Assembly: GCA_963726245.1 (NCBI GenBank)
Contig: CAVSBT010000034.1
Coordinates: forward strand, 1 to 18,865
DNA length: 18,865 nucleotides
Direction of reading: 5' to 3'
From: an uncultured Chloroflexia bacterium
GTDB taxonomy: Bacteria > Chloroflexota > Dehalococcoidia > DSTF01 > JALHUB01
The position numbers were made by a program, and so were the translations under genes. Of this stretch, positions 116-18,670 are shown piece after piece (position 1 is the stretch's first letter; every line of letters begins with the position of its first letter). Under the pieces are notes generated by a model. That model had not been told where the DNA came from and ran no database searches. It was given only the letters and a program-made list of their open reading frames with translations.

Positions 116-1049
116 TTGGTAGACTCAACCATGGTGAAGCCACTTCACCCCAAGGACTTGACAGCACTGGTCGTCGAAGATGACCACAACGACGCAACGA
201 TAGCTGCAAGGGCGCTCAATACGTTCGGCATCAAGAAGTGCCGCACGGTGGGCACTGCGGAGGATGCGCTGGCGTTCCTGGCCGATCACACGCGCGACGT
301 CGCGCTCATCGACTACAGGTTGCCCGGAATGAACGGCCTGCAACTCCTGGAGCGCACTCGTGAATTGTACCCTGACATCCTGGCTATCCTCGTGACGGGG
401 GTTAGGGACGAAAATGTCGCAGTCTCCGCCATGAAGCTAGGCGCAGCCGACTACGTGGCCAAGGATGACCTTCTCACGGGCCACCTCGTTCGCTCCCTAC
501 AGACCGCTCTGAGGGAACGGATGGCTTCGCGCGACGAAGAGCGCAGAGCAGTGATCTTCATCTGGTGCGGATAAGATTCAGGTAGCCAGCGAGGAAGCGA
601 GGTGGCTCGTGGATTTGGTCTGTGAGGCCTCGTATGACCTGACGGCGCGTCGCTTTCGGGACAAGTGGTCTGACGTCCTGGCTTCGAACTCACCGCTTGG
701 CGACCGCGTGCCGTCAGGCTCTGTTGCCCTAGATTACGGGGAGGAGCAGTGGTCCGACGTGCTCGATGCCTTCCTGCAATACGTGAGCGAATCCTTTCGT
801 GTGTTTCCCGCTCCCGCCTCGAAGGAAGAGGATTTGCTCGTCGGAAGGTTCGTCGCGCGCGGTTCAAGCCCCCGAGAGGTCATGATGGTCTATCGAGCTG
901 CGCTGCGGTCACTATTGTCCGAGCCTACTAGGACAGAGGCGGAGCCGCCATTGAACCCCACGGTTCTCCTTGCCCGGATACTGGCCCGCCTAATTGATGA
1001 GTGCCAGCGGCAGTCGTCTGTCATGGCAGCAGGCGAGAACACAGCCTAG
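116..1049 (+). CDS. Response regulator: receiver domain plus helical output domain (KaiA-C/RsbU-N-like); apparent one-base frameshift near 557
   Basis: Receiver motifs are intact: VVEDD, phosphoacceptor IDYRLPG, LVTG, DYVAK. GAGGA at 106-110 precedes TTG116 (ATG131 is an alternative). The second frame is open from 555 (SSGADKIQVASEEARWLVDL...). Removing one T from ATCTTCA joins ORFs 116..574 and 609..1049 into a 310-aa protein. Confidence 0.8.
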
Positions 1050-1323: not shown

Positions 1324-3804
1324 TCAGTCCAGTGCTCGGGCCGCGTAGGCGAGCGCCGCCAGGCCGACGGCGTAGCTGACGCATCCCGCCCAGAACGCCG
1401 ACGAGATCCCCCAGGACAGCGCGATGAGCACGGCCAGCACCGACGCGCACACCGACATGGCACCGTTGATTCCCCACAGGAACGCCATCGGTGCGTCCGG
1501 CCGCAACGATGCCATCTTCATCCCGATTGGGAAGGGCATCCCCATCAGGAAGCCGATGGGCACCAGCATGGCCGTGGCCGCTGCGATGCGGACCGGCGTC
1601 GTCGCTGAGTCGAACCGGTGGATGACGAGAGGCGTCACAAAAGCAAAGGCGACGAGCAACATCATCAGGGGCACGAACGGCCACAAGGTAGACCGGCGCG
1701 GATGCGGATTGCCCAATCGCTGGGTCGCCAGGCTGCCGATGCCGCTGGACAGGAGAAGCGAGAAGAGTACCACCGACAGGGCGTAGGACGGGTGCCCCAG
1801 GAAGATGATGAGGCGCTGCAACTGAGAGACCTCGATGAGCAAGAAGCCCAGACCGATGCCCGAGAAGAACACGAAGAACGGCAGCATGCCCCTCAGGGCC
1901 GCCTTCTTCGTCGTGAGGGACAGCGGCAGGATGATGCTCAGGAAGGTCAGCGACAGGACGGCGATGGTCAGTGAGAACAGCACTCGCGTCGGCCTCGCAA
2001 TGTAGTCCTCCGAAGCCGGCACGCTATTGAAGACATCCTGGGGCCGGACCATTTGAAAGAAGAAGGGTCTATCGTCGGTCGGCGGCGAGATATCGAAGGG
2101 GTAGGCGGCGGCGAAGGCAGCCGGGTCCTTCGCCTCCACGATGGCGTTGAAGGTGGGGTCGCTGGCGTGGTCCGGCGCCAGCACTACCTCGAACCGCATC
2201 TGCCGCGCGACGCGTTCCAGCGTCGCCACGTCCTCCTGCGACAGCGGCTGCGGGCTAACGAGGATCGTGCCCACAGAGGCAAAGGGCGCCGGACCCGTCG
2301 CCAGGAAGAGGTGCTGGCGGGGGTCATCGATGCCCCGGTCGCGCAGGACCTTCGCCGCCAGAGCCGTGAGGCGATAGGCCTCCAGCGGCTGGTCCGGGAC
2401 GTACCAGCGGGAGACGGTCAGCACGCCACCCGGGGTCAGGTGATCGAGGAAGGTCTGCCATGCTTCGACGGTGTAGAGAGAGTTCTCAGAGAGGGCATAG
2501 GCTCCTGCCGCCGTGGCCGCCCAGGTGTCGATGAAGGAGATCTGAATGATGTCGAACTTCTCCTTGGAGCGGGCGATATAGCTCCTCGCCTCGTCGGTGA
2601 CGAACCGGACGCGCGGGTCGCGGTCCAGGTGACCGGTGAAGTCGCCATAGACCTTGTTGACGGCGTCCAGGATCTGCTGGTTGATCTCGACGCCGGTGAC
2701 TGAGTGCTGGTTGAAGGCCAGGGCCGACAGGACGTCGCTGCCGCCGCCTACACCGACGACCAGCACGTCGGCGTTGCTCCTGATGTAGTGCGCCAGGTTC
2801 ACCACCTGGTACTTGAGGTGTTCTATCGTTGCCGGGTTGCCGTCGTAGTGGGTGAGGACCGTGCCGGCGCTGGCGTCGATGGTCATGCCGAGCTGGCGCA
2901 CCTGGAAGCCAGCCGGTAGGGTGGGGCTCATGCCTCCACCGACCGGCCTGGCGAGCACGTTTGGGTCGCCAGCTACCTTGATCCGGGAGAACGAGTTCCA
3001 CTTCTCGTAGAGGCCGGGCTCGTCCCGCTCGCCCTTGGTCCACATTAGCCGCAGGATCGGCTCCTGATGTCGGAACGCGACAGCGTTGTTGATGGTGAAG
3101 CCCAAGAGCAGGCCGGCGGCACAGGCGGCGAGCCACATCGTGCTGCGCGTCCCGGCATCATAGGCGAAGAGCACTGCGCCGACGCAGCAGAGCGAGGCGA
3201 TGGCGACTACGGCAGACGGGCCGTCGAGGACATCGAGGAGCCGAAGGAGGGCGATGGTTCCCAGAGCCGCGCCCACCAGGTCGGCCGCGTACAGCTTGCT
3301 GACCTGCCGGCTGAACTTCGTAAGGGCCAGGCAGACACAAATGCCGCTGAACATGAAGGGGACAGAGATTACCAGGTAGGTGAAGCCGACGGAGTAGACT
3401 CCCATGAGCGTCCACTCTGGGTTGAAGGGGATCGAGAGCTGGGTGAGGAAGCTGACAATTATCGCCACGCCGAAGAGGAGCGCAAATAGCGAAAGCCGCT
3501 CCTTGGCCTTTTCGTCTGGAAAGCGCTCCGGCAAGAGGTAAACCAGCAAGGCGCCGACGGTCATCCCGAAGAGGGCTACTGAGACAGCGACAAAGGCAAA
3601 GTGATACCACATAGTCACGCTGAATATCCGGGTCAGCAGGACTTCGTACATCAGGGTGCTGAAGGAGACCATGAAGAGGCCGGCGTAAGTGCCGGCCGTG
3701 GCCTGCGAGGGGTTGACGGCGCTCTCGCCCGACTTCCTCAGCAGGCCCAGGGGTCGCCGCAGCGCCCCAAGCGTATCCAGGAGTCCCTTATTGCCCGATG
3801 CCAA
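1324..3804 (-). CDS. Polytopic membrane protein with central spermidine-synthase-like class I SAM-binding domain (fused MFS/spermidine synthase family)
   Basis: About 7 TM + soluble domain (VLVVGVGGGSD, GVEIN, DEARSY, FDIIQI, LYTVEAW, LTPGGVL) + about 7 TM. Start uncertain: the ORF extends to GTG3873; TTG3804 has AAGGG upstream and lies downstream of a TACAAT hexamer at 3859-3854. Confidence 0.85.
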   Translation of the reverse strand: MASGNKGLLDTLGALRRPLGLLRKSGESAVNPSQATAGTYAGLFMVSFSTLMYEVLLTRIFSVTMWYHFAFVAVSVALFGMTVGALLVYLLPERFPDEKAKERLSLFALLFGVAIIVSFLTQLSIPFNPEWTLMGVYSVGFTYLVISVPFMFSGICVCLALTKFSRQVSKLYAADLVGAALGTIALLRLLDVLDGPSAVVAIASLCCVGAVLFAYDAGTRSTMWLAACAAGLLLGFTINNAVAFRHQEPILRLMWTKGERDEPGLYEKWNSFSRIKVAGDPNVLARPVGGGMSPTLPAGFQVRQLGMTIDASAGTVLTHYDGNPATIEHLKYQVVNLAHYIRSNADVLVVGVGGGSDVLSALAFNQHSVTGVEINQQILDAVNKVYGDFTGHLDRDPRVRFVTDEARSYIARSKEKFDIIQISFIDTWAATAAGAYALSENSLYTVEAWQTFLDHLTPGGVLTVSRWYVPDQPLEAYRLTALAAKVLRDRGIDDPRQHLFLATGPAPFASVGTILVSPQPLSQEDVATLERVARQMRFEVVLAPDHASDPTFNAIVEAKDPAAFAAAYPFDISPPTDDRPFFFQMVRPQDVFNSVPASEDYIARPTRVLFSLTIAVLSLTFLSIILPLSLTTKKAALRGMLPFFVFFSGIGLGFLLIEVSQLQRLIIFLGHPSYALSVVLFSLLLSSGIGSLATQRLGNPHPRRSTLWPFVPLMMLLVAFAFVTPLVIHRFDSATTPVRIAAATAMLVPIGFLMGMPFPIGMKMASLRPDAPMAFLWGINGAMSVCASVLAVLIALSWGISSAFWAGCVSYAVGLAALAYAARALD

Positions 3805-3972
3805 TGTGTGGTACCCTTGTCCGCCGCCCCCTGTTTCTTGAACAAGCGGGCCTATTGTAAGGCCCAAATACACTTGTGAGCACTAGCCGAAAGGAAGGCC
3901 GCCACCGGCCGCTATCTGAAGGAGTGCGGCTTCCGGCATTCTCTGGGGGAAAAGGTGCCTCTCGGGGTCTGG

Positions 3973-4819: not shown

Positions 4820-5800
4820 TCACGCAGGCTGTCGCCGATGAAGTGGACTTGCCCATATCTCCCCTGAAGATACCGCTTCTCTAATCCTGGGCAGCACCTG
4901 GCTGTCGATATCGGTGTCCCCGCTCGGCACTGGCACATCGCGGAACAGGAACCAGTGCTCGACATGCTCTACAGTGCCCTCCGGCCGTAGGCGCGTCAGC
5001 GGGCCCAGGGTTTCCAGCTCCAGCATGTCAGCGTCGGTGAACACCTCGACAGAGCAGCCGAAATCGGGGTAGCGCTCGCCTTCGAAGTAGCTGAACTTCT
5101 TCACGAACAAGTGGCCCTCCCGAGCGTAGGCTGCCCAACCGTCGGTGACCATGAAGCCCGCCTTCTGCGGCGTATTGGCTCTCCTGTCCTGACCCAACGT
5201 CACGTACTTGCTGCCCCAGGCCCAGCGCCGGTCCGCCATATCGGTATACGCCCAGAGCGCGATGATGTTCGTCGGCAAGAGGCTCTCCTCGTGCGATGCG
5301 CGCGGCGGCAGCGGGATGATAGCCTTGCCTCCCGGCGCCATGACGGAGAGTGCCCACGGAGCGAGTTCCACCGCCCAGAGGTTGGTGTTGCGGAGACGAT
5401 GGGTCAACTCCACGTGCGCCTCGCTCGCCGACAGTCTTATGTCAATCTCCTTCTGAATCCCCGTTGTTGTCTCAGTGGGCTGAATCATGCGGACGAAGCC
5501 AGTATGCTCCTCCAATTCGACAGGCGAGTTGTCGGGATAGTAGGTCCGTGGCCTGGCTTCGGGAGCGTGCCAGAGGCGATGCCCGCCATAGATGCGCCAC
5601 TCGGCACCGCCCGTCTCGCCCACCATATCGTCGTATTCCTTGAACTCATTCTCCTCACCCACGAATCCGAACCGGATGATGCGTGGTCCGACATCCGTCG
5701 TCACGACAAGGTCAACGAGACCGTTTGACATACGGTAACAGTTCTGCCAGCCCTCGTAGTTTGTCTTTTCCATGTCTACGTTCTGCTGCGCTGAGTGCAC
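4820..5800 (-). CDS. DUF4380 / galactose-mutarotase-like fold protein
   Basis: LVVTTDVGPRIIRFG, YGGHRLWHAPE and ELETLGP motifs typical of this beta-sandwich family. GGGAGG precedes GTG5800; ATG5773 is an alternative start. Confidence 0.7.
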   Translation of the reverse strand: MHSAQQNVDMEKTNYEGWQNCYRMSNGLVDLVVTTDVGPRIIRFGFVGEENEFKEYDDMVGETGGAEWRIYGGHRLWHAPEARPRTYYPDNSPVELEEHTGFVRMIQPTETTTGIQKEIDIRLSASEAHVELTHRLRNTNLWAVELAPWALSVMAPGGKAIIPLPPRASHEESLLPTNIIALWAYTDMADRRWAWGSKYVTLGQDRRANTPQKAGFMVTDGWAAYAREGHLFVKKFSYFEGERYPDFGCSVEVFTDADMLELETLGPLTRLRPEGTVEHVEHWFLFRDVPVPSGDTDIDSQVLPRIREAVSSGEIWASPLHRRQPA

Positions 5801-5926
5801 GTCGCCTCCCTTGGCTTCGGCATACTAGGGTGGACGAGCCCCATCGAGGTCCGCCGCGCCGAACGCACACTGAGTGTGGATCGTGTGTCCTAGGTCGCAA
5901 GGGTGGTTCGACCCTTAGTTCAGACA

Positions 5927-5957
5927 ACAAAGGGGGTTGTTGCGCAACCCCCTTTGT
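5927..5957 (-). terminator. Perfect 13-bp hairpin, possible intrinsic terminator downstream of the binding-protein gene
   Basis: ACAAAGGGGGTTG-ttgcg-CAACCCCCTTTGT. On the minus strand the GC stem is followed by TTTGTTGTCT. Confidence 0.5.
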
Positions 5958-6024: not shown

Positions 6025-7407
6025 CTACTCTCCCACCCGCCGGTTGTACTCTGCGATGGTTTCGTCGGCCTTGGCGGCAGCGTCCGCCAGGGCCTGCGCG
6101 GGGTCCTTGCCGCCCACCAGCATCTCCTCCACCGCCGTATACACGATTTCGGCCACCTGGTCGGCAGGACCGAGGACGGCTCCCGAAGTGGCAGCCGTGG
6201 CCGGGGTATTACGGTAAAGGTCGAGGGGCACCTGGAAGAGGGGATAGCGGGCCACCATGTCCTGCGCCGCCGGCAGGTCGACAGCAGAGCGGCTGACGGG
6301 GAGGTAGCCGGTGCCACCGACCCACTCGGCCTGCTGCTCGGGTTGCACAAGCCACTTGATGAACTTCCAGGCCGCCTCCTGCTCTTGCTCCGGCCGCTGG
6401 TTCATGATCCAGAGCGCGTAGACAGAGAAGCCGTTAAGGCCCTTGCCCCCAGGGACACCCGGCATCTGGCTGACGCCGATCTCCACGCCCTGCACGCCCT
6501 GCTCCAGGGCATCGATCACGGAGCGCAACGCACCCGCATAGCTGAAGGTCATGGCGACCCGACCGGAGGCCATGGCGAGAAAGTCGTCCGCGTAGGTGGG
6601 GTTGCGGCCCACATTGAACGCCAGCCCGCTATCCACCATGTCGTGCCACCACTGGAAGAACTAGCGACCGGTGTCGTTGTCGAAGAGGACCTTGGTCGCG
6701 CGGCCGTCATGCCCGTTGGACTGGTCTACCCAGAGTTCGTCGTTCTCTGTTAGGACGGTGCTCAGCCAGCCGAAGATGTCGAGGGCGATGCCGCTGCGCA
6801 CCACGTTCCCGGAGGCGTCGCGCTTCAGGATCTTCTCTGAATACTGGCGGAGTTCCTCCAGGTCCTGGGGCGGCTTCTCGGGGTCCAGCCCCACCTCTCG
6901 GAAGGTCACCTTGTTGTAGTACAGGAGGGGCATCTCTCCGGTGAAGGGCATGGCCCATATGCTGTCTTTCACCGTGTAGTATTGCACCGCCTTTTCGTCC
7001 AGGTCCGAGAGGTCATAGCCCTCCTTGTCGATGAAGTCCTGGGCAGGGGCGACGGCACCGCTGTCGATCATTCTCTGAGTCTGGCTCTCGTTCAATAGGA
7101 CCACGGCCGGGACCTGCCCCGAGCCAAGAGACGCGATCAACTTGGCCGCGGCCTCGTCGTAGGCGCCCTGGTAGGACGCACGCACCCTCACCTCGTTCTG
7201 GGACGCGTTGAACTGATCCACGAGGCGGTTCAGGGTCTCCACGTTGGAGCCGACCTCGGAATGCCAGAGGTCAATGCTGACGGGCCCGGCTGCTGGGCGG
7301 GCGCCAGGGGTCTTGGCGGTTGGGGTGCCCTTTTCGCCACCACCGCAAGCCCCCAGGGTCACGGAGAGGAGCAGGACAGCGACTAGCGAGAGCAGTGACT
7401 TTCGCAC
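6025..7407 (-). CDS. ABC transporter solute-binding lipoprotein, sugar/glycerol-3-phosphate (UgpB-like) class, interrupted by in-frame TAG at 6663-6661
   Basis: AAGGAGG before GTG7407; lipobox LGAC; IDLWHS, YQGAYDE, AMPF...LLYYNK, AAWKFIKWL, TGYLPV. ORFs 6661..7407 and 6025..6639 share a frame: ...NDTGR*FFQWWHDMVDSG. Confidence 0.85.
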
Positions 7408-7620: not shown

Positions 7621-7657
7621 GGTTCCAGAGGCCGTTCGGCCGCCGACGAATAGGGCA

Positions 7658-8462
7658 TCACCTGGCGGGCTGTCTCATACACCACGCCGAATGGGGAAGG
7701 TCGCTACACGGAGATAGTCGGCCACCCATTAGCAGATGATCAGCTTGTAATGTTTGTTCTCCAGACCGGCCGTTTTCTGGGTCCAGTCCCGGCCCCGCGT
7801 CGCCCACCAGAACGCATCTAGAGAGGGCCGCCCCGCAGCGCATCGGGGCGACTATTCTCCAGCCGCTTCTCCTACCATCTCGGGCAGACCCCTCCACCTC
7901 GCCTCCCACATGCGCACGCGCCCGCAACGGCATCTCCCGCAGCAGCCACGAGACGAGGAAGCCGACGACGATGAGGGGTACCGCCCACAAGAACACCGTA
8001 CCCAGGGATAGAGAGAAGGCATGGACCACGCCGGCGTGGTGCGACGATGTCGCCGATGACGGCCTGGGACATCGTAATGATCCCGCCGGCTCCCAGGCCC
8101 TGTATGCCCCGAAACAGGACGAGTTGGAGCATGCTGTGTGCGACGCCGGACAAGAGAGACCCCACCAGGAAGATGCAAATGGCAATCTGGAACAGCAGCT
8201 TCCGGCCGTAGAGGTCACTCAGCTTCCCGTACAGCAGCATCGAAGAACAGGAGGTAAGCAGGTAGGCCGTAATGACCCAGGAAAGGTGTTCCAGGCCGCC
8301 TAGCTCGCCGACGATCGTGGGTAAAGCCGTCGACACCACTGTCTGGTCGAGGGATGCCAGCAGCATCCCCGCCATCAGGCCGGTGAACACGATCTGGATC
8401 TGCCGGTGCGAAAGCCCGACTACACCGTCGGCAGTGGGCGCGGAATCTGAGCTGCTACTCAT
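7658..8462 (-). pseudogene. DHA2 (EmrB/QacA-like) MFS transporter pseudogene with about 1-kb internal deletion; paralog of 13262-14875
   Basis: N-terminal part (LSHRQIQIVFTGLMAGMLLASLDQTVVSTALPTI...GDIVAPR) jumps near 8030, with a frame change, to the C-terminal part (GVVHAFSLSLGTVFLWAVP...LREMPLRARAHVG). Both match the intact paralog. Homology ends near 7900; 7658 is only the next stop. Confidence 0.9.
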
Positions 8463-8563
8463 TTCTACCGCGAGTCTGGTTCATGACTACCTGCCGAATC
8501 GACGGCGGCACAGAATGCTTCAAGTGAGTCTGCCAGACGACGGACGGAGTCCTCGCCCATCTC

Positions 8564-8800
8564 TTGCAGGACACTCGCCACCTCCTTCGAAAACTGGGCG
8601 TGACACCAATGGTTATTTGGGGTCGTCCGAAACGTGCAGGTCAACCAAGTGATCCTGCCGCGATGGCGGCCTTCGGCAAGGACCTAGAGGCGTGGGCCCT
8701 GCTTGACCGGCTGGAAAAGGAGGCTCGGATTGCCCACGACAACATCGAACGCTGCCAGGAGACCTTGAAGCATCTAGCGGCGAAAGAGACTGTCGTCTAG
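8564..8800 (+). CDS. Small hypothetical protein, helical/coiled-coil C-terminus; possibly 5'-truncated
   Basis: 78-aa ORF with amphipathic LLDRLEKEARIAHDNIERCQETLKHL. TTG start has no clear RBS. Confidence 0.4.
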   Translation: MQDTRHLLRKLGVTPMVIWGRPKRAGQPSDPAAMAAFGKDLEAWALLDRLEKEARIAHDNIERCQETLKHLAAKETVV

Positions 8801-8817
8801 AATCGGTAGGGCAGGCC

Positions 8818-8910
8818 ATGGGAGTAGCATTTGGTAATCCCTGGGCGCTAGCGTTCGTCATTGCGGGGGCCATCGTTCTCGCCCTGGTGGTGATGCTCAT
8901 GCGGGAGTGA
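8818..8910 (+). CDS. 30-aa single-pass membrane microprotein (MGVAFGNPWALAFVIAGAIVLALVVMLMRE)
   Basis: ATG8818-TGA8910, purine-rich GGTAGGGCAGG upstream, about 19-residue hydrophobic run. Below the ORF-track cutoff. Confidence 0.55.
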   Translation: MGVAFGNPWALAFVIAGAIVLALVVMLMRE

Positions 8911-8951
8911 AGGCCGGGCCAAGGTTTGGAGGAGGAGGAGGGAATGGCGAT

Positions 8952-9080
8952 TCAGCGTGCCCCAGTGGGCAGTCGTCCCACAACCCTCGCCTCTAAGACC
9001 GCCACGACGGCGAGCGCCAGCAGACGGTTACGCCAGCGATGCTCGCCGATCTGCAACGGGGCCTCAAGTGGTCCCTTCAC
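8952..9080 (-). pseudogene. 5' stub of a membrane-anchored protein coupled to the TetR remnant
   Basis: AGGAGG RBS; GTG9080 overlaps the TetR stop (GTGA). MKGPLEAPLQIGEHRWRNRLLALAVVAVL is a basic patch plus a half-length TM that breaks off. Confidence 0.45.
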
Positions 9081-9394
9081 GTTCCCCGCCTCCTTCCCAT
9101 GCCCGCGTAGCGCAAACCGCCCAGCGCCAGCGCCGGTAACGTTTGCAGCAGCGTCCCATCTTCCGGGCCGCTCTCGGTTGAGAACAACATCTGAATGTAC
9201 ATGCCGCCAATCGCCTGGGCGGCGCCTCAGACATCACCGACGGTGAACGCTCCCTCGCTCATACCGCGCTGGATGATTCCTTCGAATACCCGGGTGGGTA
9301 TTTCCGCTAGCGGACGGCCGCGATGTCCTCGCTTGGGCAGATGCTGCACGGTCAGCGCCAGCAGGCTGCGGTGCGAGCGGATGAGCCGGATGGG
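9077..9394 (-). pseudogene. TetR-family regulator C-terminal remnant (HTH missing, in-frame TGA at 9229-9227)
   Basis: Manual translation IRLIRSHRSLLAL...RVFEGIIQRGMSEGAFTVGDV*GAAQAIGGMYIQMLF...LPALALGGLRY shows the typical TetR C-terminal pattern. Confidence 0.7.
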
Positions 9395-9423
9395 TTGACA
9401 ACGGCAGGCACCGCCGATATGCT
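9395..9423 (+). promoter_or_regulatory. Sigma70-type promoter of the MarR-ABC operon
   Basis: TTGACA (9395-9400), 17-nt spacer, TATGCT (9418-9423). Confidence 0.75.
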
Positions 9424-9429
9424 TGACTT

Positions 9430-9921
9430 ATGCAACAATTAACAATGGAAAGTACCCAACCTGTCAGCGAGGGGCGGTGCGCTGCGGTCCTGATCGATGT
9501 CGTACCTCTCGTGATGCGTGCCCTCCGAGACGAAATGCGCAGGCATCGCGCTGCTGGCCTGTCCGTGCCCCAGTTCCGCGTCCTGATGTTCCTGGGCCAT
9601 CGCCAGGAGGCGACGTTGTCGCAGGTGGCCGAACACGTCGGCCTGACGCTCCCCTCGGCGTCCCGCATGGTGGACGGACTGGCAGCCCGAAAGCTGGTGA
9701 CGCGCCGCATCTCGCCCAGCGACCGCCGTTGTGTCACGTTAGCACTCACCACCCGGGGCAGGTCCAGGCTGGAGTCGGCCCACCGGGCCGCCCAGCTACG
9801 CCTGGCTGCAATGCTCGGGGCGCTGTCGGCGGAGGAGAGACTTACCGTCGTTCAAGCGATGGACGTCTTGCGGCCGGTCTTCACGCCGAGGAGGACGCCA
9901 GAGGCCCATGCAGCCAGGTGA
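9430..9921 (+). CDS. MarR family transcriptional regulator
   Basis: GLSVPQFRVLMFL, TLSQVAEHVGLTLPSASRMVDGL, DRRCVTLALTTRGR winged-helix motifs. Start ATG9430 or ATG9445. Confidence 0.95.
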   Translation: MQQLTMESTQPVSEGRCAAVLIDVVPLVMRALRDEMRRHRAAGLSVPQFRVLMFLGHRQEATLSQVAEHVGLTLPSASRMVDGLAARKLVTRRISPSDRRCVTLALTTRGRSRLESAHRAAQLRLAAMLGALSAEERLTVVQAMDVLRPVFTPRRTPEAHAAR

Positions 9922-10723
9922 CTCAAGGGGGATCGTGGAGACGAGGTCTCTCACCCGCCGCTTTGGCGGCCTGACGGCGGTAGATGCGCTAACGCTCACG
10001 GTGGAAGCGGGCGAGGTGTTCGGACTGGTGGGTCCCAATGGGGCGGGAAAGACGACAGTAATGAAGATGCTGACCACCCTGCTGCCACCTACTTCGGGCA
10101 CGGCGCTTGTCGCCGGCTTCGACATCGTGCGCAAGGCAGCAAACGTGCGGCGCAGCGTCGGGTACGTGCCGCAGATGCTCTCCGCCGACGGCGGTTTGAC
10201 GGGGTATGAGAACCTGTTGCTCTTCGCCAAGCTATACGACATCCCCCGCCGCGAGCGCCAGGCGCGGGTACAGGAGGCTCTCGCCTTCATGGGCCTCGAC
10301 GAGGCAGCAGACAGGCTCGTGCGCAACTATCGGGCGGCATGATCCGGCGCCTGGAGGTCGCCCAGGCCATGCTGCACCGGCCGCCGGTTCTCTTCCTGGA
10401 CGAGCCGACAGTGGGCCTGGACCCTGTGGCTCGCAGAGCGGTGTGGGAGCACATAACGGCGCTCCGGGCGGAGTACGGCACCACCATCTTGCTGACCACC
10501 CACTACATGGAGGAAGCGGACAGCCTCTGCGACCGAGTGGCCATCATGCACCGCGGCAAGGTGGTCGCCATCGGCACGCCCGCCGCGTTGAAGGCGTCCG
10601 TCGGCGGAGACGGCGCGACCATGGACGAGGTGTTCACCCACTACACCGGCGGGAGTCCTCGAGTCGGGAGGGAGTTACCGTGAGACTGCAAGAACAAGGC
10701 GCACTGCGCGGCGGCTTGGCTAG
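9908..10723 (+). CDS. ABC-2 (DrrA-like) exporter ATP-binding subunit; two apparent frameshifts (about 10330 and 10652)
   Basis: Walker A GPNGAGKTT, Q-loop YVPQ, Walker B LFLDEPT, H-loop LTTH. Adding one T at TATCG restores the signature YSGGMIRR. Removing one G near 10652 restores the tail LESGGSYRETARTRRTARRLG* ending at TAG 10721-10723. Confidence 0.9.
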
Positions 10724-11530
10724 CCTGGCGCTTCCCATCCTGCCAGCCCGTTGGCCGCTGTCGGCCAGTTCGTAGGCAAGACCCTGACTATCGCCGAGGT
10801 GGAGACGCGCAAGCTCCGCCACGACCCGACCGAACTCCTCACGCGGGCTATCCAGCCCACTCTCTGGCTCCTGGTCTTCGGCCAGGTCTTCACCCGCGTG
10901 CGGGCGATCCCGACCGGTAACCTGCGGTACCTGGACTTCATGGCGCCGGGGATTCTCGCCCAGAGCGTGCTCTTCATCGCTATCTTCTACGGCATCGCCA
11001 TCATCTGGGAGCGCGATCTGGGCATAATACACAAGTTCCTGGCCACGCCCACGCCGCGCACGGCCCTGGTGCTGGGCAAGGCGCTGGCGGCTGGCGTCCG
11101 CGCGCTCACGCAGGGGCTCATCATCTACGTGCTAGCCTTGCTGCTCGGCGTGAAGGTCAACTGGTCGCCGCTGGCGCTCCTGGGCGTGGTGATTCTGGTG
11201 CTCCTGGGCGCCGCCCTCTTCTCCACCTTCTCCCTCATCATCGCCTGCCTGATCAAGACCCGCGAGCGCTTCATGGGCATCGGCCAGGTGCTGACCATGC
11301 CCATGTTCTTCGCCAGCAACGCCATATACCCCATCTCCATAATGCCGGCGTGGCTGAAGGTCTTCGCCCACGCCAACCCGCTGACCTATGAAGTGGACGG
11401 GCTCCGCAGCCTGATGCTGGCCGGTGGGACAAGCCAGTACAGCCTTGGCCTGGACTTCGCCGTGCTGACGGCGGCTACGGCGGCGCTGGTGATAATCGGC
11501 GGGCGCCTTTACGCGAACGTGGTGACGTAG
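10680..11530 (+). CDS. ABC-2 (DrrB-like) exporter permease
   Basis: YLDFMAPGILAQ, ERDLG, FFASNAIYP, NPLTYEVDGLR; about 6 TM. GGGAGGGAG RBS precedes GTG10680, which needs one extra base near 10735 to join the 10751 frame. Otherwise the start is TTG10751. Confidence 0.9.
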
Positions 11531-13261: not shown

Positions 13262-14875
13262 TCAGACGATCAGGGGCCCTCGAAGGGCTCCGCGGCCAGA
13301 GCCGGCGTCGGCGGTTGCTCCGTTTCGCGCGCCCACGTGGGCGTGCTCGCGCAGCGGGATCTCCCGCAGCAGCCAGGAGGCCAGGAAGGCGAGCAGGGTT
13401 ATCGGCACCGCCCACAGGAAGACGGTGCTGAGGGAGCGGGAGAACGCCTCGATCACGCCGTGCAGGACCGGCGCCGGGAGCGTCCGCAGTTGCGCCGGGC
13501 TGGCGGTGAGCGCGGCCCGACTGATGCCGTTGAGAGCAGTAGTGGGGACCAGGCGCGGCAGGTAGTAGTCCAGCCGGTTATTCAGGATCGAGCCAAAGAT
13601 CGCAACCCCGAACGCTGCGCCCAGCGAGCGGAACAGGTTGGCGCCGGCGGTCGCCGCGCCCAGGTCTCGGTACGGGACAGCGTTCTGCACCGCCAGCACG
13701 ATCACCTGCATGATCATCCCAAGTCCGACGCCGAGCACCACCATGTAAGCGGACTCCTCGAGGAAGCCGGTGCCGGCGTCCAGCCGGGACAGCAGGAAGA
13801 GCCCCAGCGTGGTGATGGCTGTGCCGGTGATCGGGTAGAAGCGGTACTTCCCGGTCTTGCTGATCATTCGACCGGAAAGGACCGAGGTGACGACCACCCC
13901 GAGCATCAGGGGTGCCAGCCGCAGGCCCGACATCGTGGCCGAGACGCCGTCCACCACCTGTAGGTAGAGCGGCAGGAAGGCCACGGTCCCGAACATGGCC
14001 AGGCCCAGGACGAACATGATCACCGCGCCCACCCGGAACACCTGCTCGCCGAACAGCCGTAGCGGCAGGAGCGGCTCGGGGGCGCGCGTCTCCTGGACCA
14101 CGAACAGGCAGAGCAGCAGCACCCCGGCCACGCTAAGGCCGATGATCTCCGGGGACCCCCAGGGATACTCGGTGCCGCCCCAACTGGTGACCAGCAGCAG
14201 GGAACTGAGACCGCCCACCATCAGCGCCGAGCCCAGGTAGTCGATGGGATGCTTCTGCCGCTGGAAGGGAAGTCGCAGCACGGTCTGCGTCACCACCAGC
14301 GCCAGCAGCCCCAGTGGCAGGTTGACGTAGAAGACCCAGCGCCAGGTCAGGTGGTCGGTGAACAGGCCGCCCATCAGCGGGCCGGCCACGCTGGCGATCG
14401 CGAAGACGGTCCCCATGTAGCCCTGGTAGCGGCCACGCTCGCGGGGGGCGATGATATCGCCGATCGTGGCCTGCGACATCGTAATGATGCCGCCGGCACC
14501 CAGCCCCTGCACGGCGCGGGAGCCAATGAGCTGCAACATGCTCTGGGCAGCCCCGGAAAGCGCCGACCCGATGAGGAAGACGGTGATGGCGAACTGGAAG
14601 AGCAGCTTGCGGCCGAACAGGTCGCTGAGCTTGCCGTAGAGCGGCATCGAGGCGGTAGAGGTCAGCAGGTACGCGGTGATGATCCAGGACAGATGCTGTA
14701 GCCCGCCCAGCTCGCCGACGATGGTCGGCAGCGCCGTGGCCACGATCGTCTGGTCCAGCGCGGCCAGCAGCATCCCCAGCATCAGGCCGCTGAACACGAC
14801 CTGCACCTGCCGGTGCGACAACTGGGTCTGTCCGGTGGTAGTTGTGCGCAGCGAAGCGGATTGCTCAGACGTCAT
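13262..14875 (-). CDS. DHA2 family (EmrB/QacA-like, 14-TM) MFS efflux transporter
   Basis: LDQTIVATALP, motif A GKLSDLFGRK, SRAVQGLGAGG, GPLMGG, WRWVFYVNLPLG, IDYLG. ATG14875 overlaps the RND stop (ATGA). Confidence 0.95.
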   Translation of the reverse strand: MTSEQSASLRTTTTGQTQLSHRQVQVVFSGLMLGMLLAALDQTIVATALPTIVGELGGLQHLSWIITAYLLTSTASMPLYGKLSDLFGRKLLFQFAITVFLIGSALSGAAQSMLQLIGSRAVQGLGAGGIITMSQATIGDIIAPRERGRYQGYMGTVFAIASVAGPLMGGLFTDHLTWRWVFYVNLPLGLLALVVTQTVLRLPFQRQKHPIDYLGSALMVGGLSSLLLVTSWGGTEYPWGSPEIIGLSVAGVLLLCLFVVQETRAPEPLLPLRLFGEQVFRVGAVIMFVLGLAMFGTVAFLPLYLQVVDGVSATMSGLRLAPLMLGVVVTSVLSGRMISKTGKYRFYPITGTAITTLGLFLLSRLDAGTGFLEESAYMVVLGVGLGMIMQVIVLAVQNAVPYRDLGAATAGANLFRSLGAAFGVAIFGSILNNRLDYYLPRLVPTTALNGISRAALTASPAQLRTLPAPVLHGVIEAFSRSLSTVFLWAVPITLLAFLASWLLREIPLREHAHVGARNGATADAGSGRGALRGPLIV

Positions 14876-17800
14876 TGCTCGGAGAGATGTTCGCTCGACG
14901 GCTGGCGGGTGAAGCGCATCTTGAGCCCGTCGACCAGGCTGTAGACCACGGGCACTACGACCAGGGTAAGCAGGGTTGAGCTGAATAGCCCGCCGATCAC
15001 CACCCGGCCCAGTTCGCTCGCGATCAGCGCCCCCTGGTTGCGGCCCAGGGCCAGCGGGATGAGAGCGAGCATCGCCGCGACGGCGGTCATCAGAATTGGG
15101 CGCACGCGGGTCTGCCCGCCCTCGACCAGCGCATCGTACGTGCTGTAGCCGCGCTCCTGCCGGAGCATGATCACGAACTCCAGCAGGACGATGGCATTCG
15201 TGACCACGATGCCGACGAGCATCAGGATGCCGATCAGCGCGCTGACGCTGAGCGCCGAGCCGGTGACCACCAGCGCCACGATCGCGCCGATCAGCGCCAG
15301 CGGCAGGCTGAAGAGGATGACGAACGGGGTGAGCAGGCTGCCGAACAGCAGCGCCATCAGCGAGTAGACCAGCACGATCGAGACGAGGATCGCGACCAGC
15401 ATCTTGGAGAAACCCTCGTTGATGTCGGCGGCGACGCCGCCGGCCTTCACCGTAAGCCCGTCCGGCAACTTGAGCTTGTCGGCGGCGCTCTGCGCATCGC
15501 TGGGAGACCTTGCCGGTGTTGGAGCTGGTGATGTCGCCGGTAATCGTCGCTGCCGGCTTGCCGTCGACGCGCGTGATGGTCGTCTGCTTGGTCACCGGCA
15601 CGATGTTAGCTACGGAGTCAAGCCGTACACCCCGGGCGATCTGCACCGCGCCCAGCGCCTCCGCGCTCGTGAGGTCGCTGGCGGACACCACCAGCCGCAC
15701 GCCGAGCGCGCCCTGGCCGAGGTCGGCGGTAGTGATGGTGCGGTTGGACGACAGGTTGGCCAGGCTGTTGGAGATCTGCTGTGCCGTCAGCCCGGCAGCC
15801 GCTGCCTTTGCCGGGTCGACCCTCACTTCGAGCGTGGGCTCGGCGGCGGCGAGGTCGCTGCGGACGTTGGCCGTGTTGGGCACGGCCGCGATCGCCGCCC
15901 GCACCTGCTCCGCCGCCCCGGGCAGGCCGCTTGCCGCCGCATCACTGTCGGCCGAGACGGTCATCGAGATGCCGGACGAGCCGAAGCCGCCGCCGGAAGC
16001 GGAAACGGAGACGTTGTCGCTGTTGGGGATGTCCCGCGCGATCAGGCCACGGAGCTCGGTCGCGACGGCGTTCTTGTCCGGTCCGCTCTTCGCCAGCTCC
16101 ACCGTGATGGTGGCCGTGTTGGCGCCCTTGCCCGAAGTGATCTTGTTGATGGCACTGAAGTCGCTGGAGGCGCCGCTGATCACGGTCTGGTAGCGGTCGA
16201 CGCTGAAGTTCGGCAGCAGCTTCTCGACGGCGATGGCCTGCTGGAGGACGGAGTCCTGGGTCTGGCCGGGGCGGGCGTTGACCGTCACCGTCACGGTCTT
16301 CTGACCCGAATCGGGCAGGAACTGCACGGGCAGCCGCGGGAGGAGCGCCAGGCTGCCGACGAACAGCCCGCCGGCAATGCCGAGGGTGATCCAGCGGTGC
16401 CCGAGCGCCCAGCGCAGTACGGGCGTGTACACCTTCGCCAGGCGGGTGTCGCCGGGGCCCGCCTTCTCACGCACCTTCACGCGGCCGGCGATGGTGAAGC
16501 GGGTGAGCGCCGGGATGACGGTCACGGCCACAACCAGCGAAGCCAGCAGCGCGAACACCACGGCCAGCGCGAACGACCAGAACATCTGGCCGATGAGCCC
16601 GCCCACCAGCCCGAGCGGCAGGAATACGGCGCAGGTTGTGGCGGTGGCGCCGGTGATGGCGATGCTCACCTCGCGGGCGCCGTTGACGATGGCCGGGAAG
16701 GATCTTCTCCCCCTGCGCCATGTGTCGGTAGATGTTCTCGAGGACCACGATGGAGTCGTCGATCACGCGGCCGATGGCGATGGTGAGGCCGCCCAACGTC
16801 ATGATGTTGACCGAGTAGCCCATGCGGTCGAGCAGCACCACGGCCACGATCACCGACAGCGGGATCGAGACGGCCGTCACCAGCGTCGTGCGCCAGTTGG
16901 CCAGGAAGAGGAAGACGATGATGACCGCGAGCACGCCGCCCAGGAGCCCATCCCGGACCACGCCGTTGATCGAGCTGGTGATCCAGGTGGACTGGTCGAA
17001 GAAGACGGTGATCGAGGCGCCCTGGGGCAGCGTCGGCTCGACCTTCTTCAGCTCGTTGGTCACCTCATGGGCGACCTGGACCGTGTTGGCGTCCTTCTCC
17101 TTGACGACCTGGATGCTGACGGCCGGCTGGCCGTCCGTGCGGCTCGCGCCGGTCGAGGCGGCCGGCGCCTCCGCGACCGTGGCGATGTCGCCGAGGCGGA
17201 CAACGCTGGCGGACGAGCCGGCAGCAGGCGCAGTGCGGATGCCGATGTTGCGGATATCGTCCAGGCTCTTGTAGACGGCGACGGTCTGAAGCGGCAGGAC
17301 GCTGTCCCCGGTGGCGAGCTGGCCGGAGGGGAGGATGACGTTGTTGGCTTGCAGCGCCTGCGCCACTTGATCGTAGGTGAGCCCGCTATCGAGCAGCTTC
17401 TGACGATCGAGGGTGACGACAACCTCGGTGAGCGCCCCGCCGCTGACGGAGACGGAGGCGACGCCGTCCAGCTTGGTCAGGTTGGGCACGACCTGGGACT
17501 GGGCGAGCTGGTACAGCTCCGTCTGGCTCAGATCGCCCTGCAAGCTGAATGTGACGATGGGTATCGACGAGACGTCAAACTTGAGGATCGATGTCGAGAC
17601 ATTCGTCCCGAGCTGCGCGCCGGCGATCGCCTGCCTGACCGCCGCCTCCGCCCCATTGAGGTCCGTACCGTAGTCGAAACTGAGCATGGTCACGCCCAGG
17701 CCCGAAACCGCAGTAGAGGAGGTCTTCTTCAGCCCTGGGAGGCCGGCTACAGCGGACTCGATCGGTGTGGTGACGGTCTGGACAATGTCCTGGGGCTGGC

Positions 17801-17975
17801 CGCCGGGGCTCCGGGCGACCACGGTAAGCACAGGGAAAGCGATGTCCGGGAGCAATTCTTCCCTGACACGGGTGAACGTAAAGCCGCCGAACCCGACCAC
17901 AAGCACGACGGCGACGAGCACCAGCAATGCCTTGCGGAACGAGTATTCAGTCAGCCACGAGACAACACGGCGCAC
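14872..17975 (-). CDS. RND (AcrB/SwrC-like) efflux permease; two apparent frameshifts (about 16696 and 15503)
   Basis: EELLPDIAFP, IGRVIDDSIVVLENI, VFLPL, GIVVTNAIVL and RVRPILMT motifs. GGAGGA RBS before GTG17975. Removing one base from each GGG run (16695-16697, 15502-15504) gives a continuous 1033-aa protein. Confidence 0.92.
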
Positions 17976-18003
17976 GGATGGTCCTCCGAATGGGTGTCCA
18001 ATC

Positions 18004-18054
18004 ATTAGAACCGGAATTCCGGTTCTTGTCAAGGGCGTCGAACTGGTGTATTCT
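18004..18054. promoter_or_regulatory. Divergent sigma70 promoters with overlapping -35 boxes
   Basis: Minus: TTGACA (18032-18027)-17 nt-TCTAAT (18009-18004). Plus: TTGTCA (18026-18031)-17 nt-TATTCT (18049-18054). Confidence 0.65.
18007..18026. promoter_or_regulatory. Perfect 20-bp palindrome, probable TetR operator
   Basis: AGAACCGGAATTCCGGTTCT between divergent RND and TetR genes, inside the RND promoter. Confidence 0.8.
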
Positions 18055-18064
18055 GCCTGTGGAA

Positions 18065-18670
18065 ATGGACCTCAACATCGTCCGTCCGTCGGAACGCGCG
18101 GATGCCCGCGCCAATCGCGCCCGTCTGGTCGAAGCGGCGCGCGCGGTCTTTAGTGAGCGGGGCCTCGCCGCCGAGATGAAGGAGATCGCGGAACGCGCTG
18201 GCGTCGGCGTCGGCACGATCTACCGCAACTTCCCCAGCAAAGAGGACCTGGTCCTTGCAATCATGAGGGATGCCCTTGCTGCTGCCATCGCAGAGGCGCG
18301 CGTGGCCGAGGCGATGGATGACCCAATCGATGGACTGCGCGCGCTGCTCGTGAGCGCGCTCGCCATGGTTGAGCGCCACGGCTGGCTGGTCGAGGCGGCG
18401 CTCGGCGGCCAGTTCCTGCCCAATCCTCAGATGCGAGCCGAACTAGGACACCACGAGCACCTGGGGCGGTTCGAGCGCCTGATCCAGCATGCCGTGGACC
18501 AGGGACGCCTGCGCGCGGATCTCGACGTGCCGGTGGCGGCCGCGATGCTTGCTGGCATAACCACGCCATGGAGTTACCGCCGCCTCCTCGCCGGGCGCAC
18601 GCCGGAGCAAGCCGCGGACGCGATCATGAGGTCGTTCCTGCGCGGAGCCGCTCCTGACGCATCTGCTTAG
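18065..18670 (+). CDS. TetR/AcrR family transcriptional regulator
   Basis: RADARANRARLVEAARAVFSERG, MKEIAERAGVGVGTIYRNFPSKEDL HTH; AVDQGRLRADLD in the C-domain. Start ATG18065 or GTG18059. Confidence 0.95.
   Translation: MDLNIVRPSERADARANRARLVEAARAVFSERGLAAEMKEIAERAGVGVGTIYRNFPSKEDLVLAIMRDALAAAIAEARVAEAMDDPIDGLRALLVSALAMVERHGWLVEAALGGQFLPNPQMRAELGHHEHLGRFERLIQHAVDQGRLRADLDVPVAAAMLAGITTPWSYRRLLAGRTPEQAADAIMRSFLRGAAPDASA

Follow-up and report, generated by a model that had tools for sequence, protein, structure and literature searches.

At the start of the window, as we call the whole 18,865-nucleotide stretch of contig CAVSBT010000034.1 that was analysed (assembly GCA_963726245.1), two open reading frames (ORFs) follow one another on the forward strand. 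The first, at 116-574 (152 codons), and the second, at 609-1049 (146 codons), lie one frame apart in the ORF listing, and the gene calls that they yield, "receiver" and "hypothetical protein", are a frameshift artefact. An earlier note on this DNA had proposed that a repair of one base would join them into a single gene for a receiver fused to a helical bundle resembling the C-terminal domain of KaiA. Sequence comparison confirmed that the two ORFs are halves of one gene, and we describe here that gene, the small protein family to which it belongs and the likeness of its C-terminal part to KaiA and RsbU.

The case for a single gene comes from its relatives, which encode it as one protein of 284-305 amino acids. 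We built a read-through protein (P0001) in which a four-letter step, TTCA read as F, bridges the two frames, and used its C-terminal 165 residues alone as the query of a homologue search. Twenty proteins were returned, 17 of which also carry the receiver family PF00072 (lengths 215-305 amino acids), and the closest are 305 amino acids long and 87-95% identical. When P0001 was aligned with 16 of these 20 hits (alignment A1; P0006, P0008, P0009 and P0010 were omitted as short or redundant), the relatives ran through the junction region in one frame ("...ERRAVILSGADKIQVASEEARWL..."). In the protein alignment they cross the junction as "...ERRAVILSGADKIQ...", where the window reads "...ERRAVIFIWCG*". 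Further support comes from L001, a contig of a Dehalococcoidia metagenome-assembled genome (MAG), in which a genome scan found an undisrupted ORF of 310 codons at 9044-9976; L001 matches the C-terminal query with 92% identity. Collinearity of the window with L001 extends over L001 8929-16619, with about 90-91% DNA identity in the common region, and a DNA alignment to the intact ORF places a net gain of one base inside a short divergent stretch of the window, 549-558. Because of a TGA at 552-554 the downstream frame is open only from 555 onwards, and a TAA at 572-574 closes the receiver frame; the joining shift is therefore possible only within 555-571.

If the two ORFs were instead two separate working proteins, a CheY-like receiver at 116/131-574 and a free C-terminal domain read from GTG 609, one would expect both to be open, as they are, and a ribosome-binding site before the second; a Shine-Dalgarno-like GAGG does precede GTG 609 by eye. 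Three of the 20 relatives, of 171, 171 and 221 amino acids, lack PF00072, and in the larger family alignment described below (A4) 18 of the 54 homologues are short, some of which could be free-standing C-terminal domains, a point that also speaks against the fused gene. Two of the three receiver-less relatives sit on contigs of 749 and 905 bp, however, so most of the short matches are probably fragments. GTG 609 and its Shine-Dalgarno-like sequence fall within a conserved coding segment, SEEARWLVD, so this GTG is no start codon; the receiver ORF ends with five aberrant residues, and several other broken genes in the window make decay or sequence error the simpler explanation. We therefore give two separate proteins very little credence. 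The true start of the gene is probably ATG 131, because the relatives begin MVKPL; TTG 116, given by the ORF finder, is less likely.

Programmed frameshifting was considered and rejected, since every full-length relative, and likewise the copy in L001, keeps to a single frame, and the shift site shows, by eye, neither a long homopolymer nor the look of a slippery site. The extra base may be a real mutation or a sequence error. As it stands, the window gene would give at best a lone receiver of 147-152 amino acids with an aberrant tail, and the full receiver-bundle protein is not made from it unless the extra base is an error.

The N-terminal half is, judged by its sequence and predicted structure, a true and phosphorylatable receiver, as had been claimed. 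PF00072 matches ORF 116-574 at residues 18-117 (numbered from the TTG at 116) with E 2.9e-19 and 69.7 bits, against a gathering cut-off of 30.2. D66, the predicted phospho-acceptor, is kept together with E21 and D22 in all 15 full-length rows of A1, as are T/S94 (Thr or Ser in the relatives) and K116 in 17 of 17 rows. For the undisrupted protein of L001, AlphaFold2 gave a model with pLDDT 82.5 and pTM 0.60 from a 37-row alignment (A5), and Foldseek superposes this full-length model on the receivers of CheY and NtrC1 with a TM-score (TM) of 0.89-0.90 and a root-mean-square deviation (rmsd) of 1.5 Å. Receivers alone were returned by that search, which was uninformative about the tail.

The C-terminal part defines a small family of its own. 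Neither Pfam (E ≤ 10) nor NCBIfam (E ≤ 0.01) gave a match to it, hence no helix-turn-helix or enzyme family, which bears out the earlier observation that such an output is lacking. An exhaustive HMMER profile search with a 13-row alignment (A2) of 1.84 billion representative proteins found 52 matches at E ≤ 0.001, 37 of them at E ≤ 1e-10 and six at E ≤ 1e-30. All 52 are 62-320 amino acids long, and in the full-length ones (about 257-320) the domain is C-terminal; the sole architecture seen among them is a receiver followed by the C-terminal domain, or fragments thereof. In A4 (55 rows; seven of the 52 matches were omitted as very short or multi-stretch), 40 of the 55 members match Response_reg (PF00072), and at least 110 residues precede the domain in 36 of the 54 homologues. 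Within the domain Q149 is invariant and Y74, P83, G101, P104, P133 and L137 reach at least 90% conservation, the consensus being F..YL......FP....EED.LVR....RG.SPREV...Y.AALR.L...(loop)...P.L.LAR.LARLVEEYQ. The family looks confined to Dehalococcoidia on the basis of the three labelled sequences, L001, L002 (a contig of another Dehalococcoidia MAG) and one named hit (P0018), which agrees with the non-cyanobacterial host that had been suspected. No match was found by tblastn against the plasmids of PLSDB.

We sought the fold of this domain with AlphaFold2, using the window's own C-terminal translation (561-1046) and A4. The model (pLDDT 84.2, pTM 0.74) comprises a long linker helix, a loop that in the window's subgroup exceeds that of most relatives by about 20 residues, and an acidic four-helix bundle (Table 1), the four helices being those that the earlier note had picked out by eye. 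Foldseek compared the model with 350,542 PDB chains and gave 379 matches; the matches named here come from ranks 1-50. KaiA accounts for nine of them, at ranks 1, 2, 3, 5, 6, 8, 12, 16 and 22 and with probabilities up to 0.87 (1q6a_A, 5jwr_F, 1r8j_A, 5n8y_N, 1r8j_B, 5c5e_A, 1v2z, 4g86_A and 1r5q). The five entries that hold the KaiA C-terminal domain in isolation have a target-normalised TM of 0.58-0.70, and the longer KaiA chains one of 0.26-0.47. The best-ranked entry, 1q6a_A, has E 0.54, probability 0.84 and TM 0.58, and the three best-fitting KaiA rows reach an rmsd of 3.3-3.4 Å over 84-89 columns, among them 5n8y_N (probability 0.87, TM 0.62, 3.4 Å over 89 columns) and 1r5q (TM 0.70, 3.3 Å over 84 columns). 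A protein language model pointed the same way for residues 146-286 of one family member (P0014), whose nearest named neighbours are KaiA clusters (0.91, 0.89 and 0.89; 199, 198 and 191 of 256 features), followed by an RsbU_N cluster (0.85, 186 features) and a "KaiA C-terminal domain-containing" cluster (0.82). RsbU-N and KaiA-C belong to one fold class (extracts of PMC11372060 and PMC4030988). The modelled bundle likely has a fold of this KaiA/RsbU-N class, closest to the KaiA C-terminal domain; homology to either is unproven.

The balance tips, if only slightly, towards reading window 131-1049 as a frameshift-broken response-regulator gene of about 305 amino acids from a small family, in which a receiver, an extended alpha-5/linker helix, a floppy loop and a KaiA-C-like acidic bundle follow one another in the design known from KaiA3. 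Several results weigh against this. None of the 379 Foldseek matches has E ≤ 0.001 (best E 0.54), and helical bundles match each other easily. Pfam KaiA (PF07688) and RsbU_N (PF08673) gave no match at E ≤ 10 in five of five proteins, and neither is among the 25 of 34 Pfam families listed for the 55 members of A4. KaiA was found in the PDB neither by single-protein search nor by three profiles (A2, A6 and A7). A chain of RsbU, 2j70_A, did appear with A6 at E 0.69 across the whole bundle (profile 47-130 against chain residues 12-91), but was gone with the bundle-only profile A7 and with A2, and is not counted as evidence. The window's own C-terminus has language-model neighbours of RsbRD_N type and not KaiA (0.91, 157-163 features, 15-17% of cluster members), a recognition that lies below the reliability mark of that method. 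Finally, the pairing of the receiver with a kinase, to which we return below, comes from adjacency alone, in one locus. The likeness that the earlier note had proposed, to KaiA-C from an alignment by eye and to RsbU-N, thus stands in part: KaiA provides the best PDB matches and KaiA and RsbU_N the language-model neighbours, but there is no Pfam match and no significant Foldseek E, and neither RsbU_N nor the RsbR N-domain occurs among the Foldseek matches listed (ranks 1-50). An identity with RsbRD_N (PF14361) was also considered and rejected, with no Pfam match among the families listed and no Foldseek support among the matches listed.

Could the bundle be a generic helical dimerisation or scaffold module, alike to KaiA by convergence, that serves as a phosphate sink or connector in a pathway of one kinase and three receivers? 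Every Foldseek E-value exceeds 0.5, the best PDB profile matches are de novo helical repeats with a common "G-SP-E" capping pattern, and the gene comes after two single-domain receivers; a layout with lone receivers beside a kinase is typical of multi-receiver pathways. However, the Foldseek probability is 0.84-0.87 for KaiA but at most 0.30 for ordinary up-down bundles, which come lower in the ranking (FAT domain, designed H4C2R, apolipoprotein E, HPt), and the invariant Q149 and near-invariant Y74, P83, G101, P104, P133 and L137 suggest more than a simple zipper. We consider a generic module unlikely.

The matches to designed proteins deserve a remark of their own. With A2, A6 and A7 they include the helical repeats 8g9k, 8g9j, 8cws, 8cwy and 8v3b at E-values down to 3e-9. 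We judged these matches (THR1, THR2 and others) to be due to chance, through the way in which both cap their helices ("helix - G - (A/S)SP(E) - helix"). They show how, when a helical domain is the query of a sequence search, idealised designs may score above its natural relatives.

Most response regulators have DNA-binding outputs, and two HPt proteins, 1wn0 and 4pac, are in the Foldseek list, so the C-terminal domain might be imagined as a new DNA-binding or HPt domain. The HPt matches have probabilities of 0.07-0.08, though, and no helix-turn-helix family was matched. Across the A4 homologues the bundle has a median isoelectric point of 4.83 and a net charge of -5, and His does not exceed 11% in any column; DNA binding and HPt function would both be unlikely because the bundle is acidic and has no conserved His. 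To this disfavoured reading we assign hardly any probability.

Having described the gene itself, we turn to its surroundings. The window begins 22 bases past the position that matches the end of L001's upstream gene, so its own upstream context is missing, and the 5' side is known from L001 (Table 1). There the receiver-bundle gene starts about 150 bases past the second of two single-domain receiver (REC) genes, which themselves closely follow a PAS histidine kinase. On the 3' side, the window and L001 both carry a convergent membrane protein, a TauE exporter, a DUF4380 protein and a solute-binding protein. Neither kaiB, kaiC nor rsb genes were found in the window, L001 or L002 (L002 by reading ORF translations, with no family scan), and in L001 the gene has no kaiB or kaiC for about 9 kb to either side; the association with kai or rsb genes that the earlier note had proposed to look for in the neighbourhood did not appear, and a PAS histidine kinase and lone receivers stand there instead. 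Scans for Rfam families, tRNAs, promoters and terminators, run on the window or on its first 1400 bases, returned nothing. Further upstream in L001 (1-6629), the PAS-GGDEF-GAF-HD protein and the EbdA-like enzyme with its 4Fe-4S subunit may feed into the signalling cluster or be targeted by it.

Table 1. Features of the receiver-bundle gene and its surroundings (window positions unless L001 is named).
Feature	Position	Strand	Support or remark
Receiver and start of linker, 5' half of the gene	131..574	+	PF00072 at 167-466; codons 557-571 out of frame; premature TAA 572-574
Predicted phospho-acceptor Asp codon (D66 counted from TTG 116)	311..313	+	Conservation in A1
Frameshift site, net one extra base relative to L001	549..558	+	DNA and protein alignments
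Long linker helix, model residues 3-40, with conserved A..EA.WL motif	561..680	+	AlphaFold2; W15 and L16 invariant in A2; GTG 609 lies inside
Variable low-confidence loop, model residues 41-64	681..752	+	pLDDT 54-65 in blocks 31-60; gapped alignment columns
Acidic four-helix bundle and last residue	753..1046, stop codon 1047-1049	+	AlphaFold2, Foldseek
Bundle helices, model residues 65-81, 87-100, 104-120 and 133-161	753-803, 819-860, 870-920, 957-1043	+	pLDDT mostly >90
PAS-GGDEF-GAF-HD (HD_5) protein	L001 1-2160	same as response regulator	
EbdA-like alpha subunit, type II dimethyl sulfoxide (DMSO)-reductase family	L001 2397-5237	same	TIGR03479, E 4e-262
4Fe-4S subunit, then a small ORF	L001 5273-6310	same	
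PAS-HisKA-HATPase kinase	L001 6785-7978	same	
Single-domain REC	L001 7993-8451	same	14-base gap after the kinase
Second single-domain REC	L001 8461-8907	same	9-base gap after the first REC
Polytopic membrane protein with central spermine/spermidine-synthase-like methyltransferase-fold domain	1324-3873 (849 aa); L001 10251-12731 (826 aa)	- (window)	Domain match weak, E 3e-6
Solute-binding protein (SBP_bac_1/8) with in-frame TAG at 6661-6663	6025-7407	-	L001 ortholog has Trp; point nonsense, no indel
MFS_1 piece, 196 aa	7872-8462	-	Profile 1-120 of 347
ABC ATPase ending at profile 104 of 137	9908-10342		Rest probably in overlapping ORF 10206-10775
Intact ABC-2 permease	10751-11530		After the ABC ATPase pieces
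AcrB/RND-family transporter over three frames	16467-18032, 15470-16669, 14872-15468	-	Profile 3-418, 433-830 and 842-1020
TetR-family gene	17927-18670		Divergent

Two deletion forms of the family add to this picture. L002 carries at 5704-5949 an internally deleted remnant of 81 amino acids, in which the first ~40 receiver residues are joined to the last bundle helix; a REC gene and a PAS fragment immediately precede it, and a membrane GGDEF protein follows (labels read from ORF translations). In P0028, a deletion form of 204 amino acids, a PAS domain is joined to the last ~75 residues of a family protein. Both suggest a recurrent order PAS, REC, REC-bundle, and decay of the locus in several lineages.

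The known protein that comes closest in design is KaiA3, which extracts of PMC11372060 describe as Sll0485 of Synechocystis PCC 6803 and its orthologs, with a true receiver and a KaiA-like C-terminus in 299 amino acids. A full-text literature search found no other description of a receiver joined to a KaiA-like protein; PMC12879404, which mentions Dehalococcoidia and KaiA, proved to have no bearing on the question. Both KaiA3 and the Dehalococcoidia protein (305 amino acids when intact) have about 300 residues, in which a receiver whose Asp can be phosphorylated is followed by a linker that has no detectable relatives and by a C-terminal four-helix bundle, of KaiA type in KaiA3 and predicted to be KaiA-like in the Dehalococcoidia protein, the KaiA-likeness of the latter coming from weak fold evidence and from the language model. 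In contrast to KaiA3, the Dehalococcoidia gene has no kaiB3 downstream and no kaiC nearby, with a PAS kinase and two lone receivers in their place, and its family has no Pfam KaiA match; the family is set apart from KaiA3 here by description, not by sequence comparison. It is a KaiA3-like design and is not assigned to KaiA3, as both the synteny and the Pfam KaiA tests fail.

The protein might nevertheless be a far-diverged true ortholog of KaiA3. Its bundle would then bind the C-terminal tail of a KaiC homolog whose gene lies elsewhere in the genome, and would stimulate the autophosphorylation of that homolog as directed by receiver phosphorylation. Architecture and length are as in KaiA3, KaiA C-terminal domains lead the Foldseek list, KaiA clusters lead the named language-model neighbours of P0014, and KaiA3 orthologs have been reported outside cyanobacteria in the Chloroflexota genera Roseiflexus and Chloroflexus (extracts of PMC11372060). 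The same extracts place kaiA3 directly upstream of kaiB3 in all genomes analysed there, whereas the gene downstream here, in both the window and L001, is the convergent spermine-synthase-like one; together with the lack of kaiB and kaiC in the L001 surroundings and of a Pfam KaiA match, this leaves true orthology with little credence.

Comparison with KaiA and RsbU shows the same mixture of likeness and difference. As in KaiA (1q6a, 1r8j, 1v2z, 1r5q and 5n8y), the bundle is C-terminal and follows a receiver-fold domain and a helical linker, although KaiA has a pseudo-receiver without the Asp, in contrast to the canonical receiver with its conserved Asp found here; the structural alignments show 12-16% sequence identity, with E-values that are not significant. 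RsbU_N (PDB 1w53 and 2j70) stands N-terminal to an effector (PP2C, kinase or GGDEF), whereas the bundle here is C-terminal and the sole output. CheY-type single-domain regulators and those with a REC and a small helical part act by protein-protein contact. The Dehalococcoidia family resembles them in having an output without DNA binding or catalysis and in its cluster with a kinase and lone receivers, but adds a conserved domain of about 150 residues. Judged on the models, the fold is supported and a Kai or Rsb link is not, so that the protein would be a diverged relative of an established design and no proven part of a clock.

For the reading we prefer, that of a KaiA3-like response regulator, we envisage the following mechanism. 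The adjacent PAS histidine kinase would phosphorylate the receiver Asp, and this phosphorylation may be relayed along the alpha-5 and linker helices to the bundle, by analogy with linker-coupled regulators such as RsbU (in extracts of PMC12143880). The bundle probably dimerises, after the example of KaiA and RsbU-N (extracts of PMC11372060). It might then bind or release a protein partner, such that the output would be a contact between proteins instead of DNA binding or catalysis. The partners are KaiC tails for KaiA and RsbT for RsbU-N (extracts of PMC11372060), the latter being a dimerising four-helix bundle that signals via a helical linker (extracts of PMC12143880). The tie to a KaiC-type or partner-switching module proposed in the earlier note is speculation, because the neighbours are a PAS kinase and single-domain receivers, with no kai or rsb genes.

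The response regulator is not the only broken gene in the window, which holds at least five disruptions in 19 kb (Table 1). Collinearity with L001 ends at base 7645, and the MFS_1 and ABC ATPase fragments fall within 7658-10775. A 1135-residue ORF at 13262-16669 is an artefact in which the middle piece of AcrB runs into a separate, apparently complete MFS_1 gene. The defects of the window point to a decaying genome or a poor consensus.

KaiA was long regarded as found in cyanobacteria alone. With KaiA3 it became clear that a KaiA-like bundle can also be borne by a true receiver (extracts of PMC11372060). It is conceivable, if distinctly unlikely, that the family represents a branch of the KaiA/RsbU-N fold, not annotated so far, in the anaerobic Dehalococcoidia, with a working receiver in a His-Asp cluster in place of a clock operon, as a living example of KaiA's ancestral response-regulator kind in which phosphorylation gates the binding of the tail of an ATPase or kinase partner. 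If true, the "tail-grabbing" adaptor mechanism of KaiA would not be restricted to clocks and the stressosome. The practical value is modest, since the family is a small one, with 52 clusters in 1.84 billion proteins, and its organisms are uncultured, yet the known response regulators gain an output domain that had no annotation. Another family of the KaiA3 design, distinct in sequence and without kai genes, would suggest that the combination of a receiver with a KaiA/RsbU bundle is a more general signalling device, and would open a way into the origin of KaiA.

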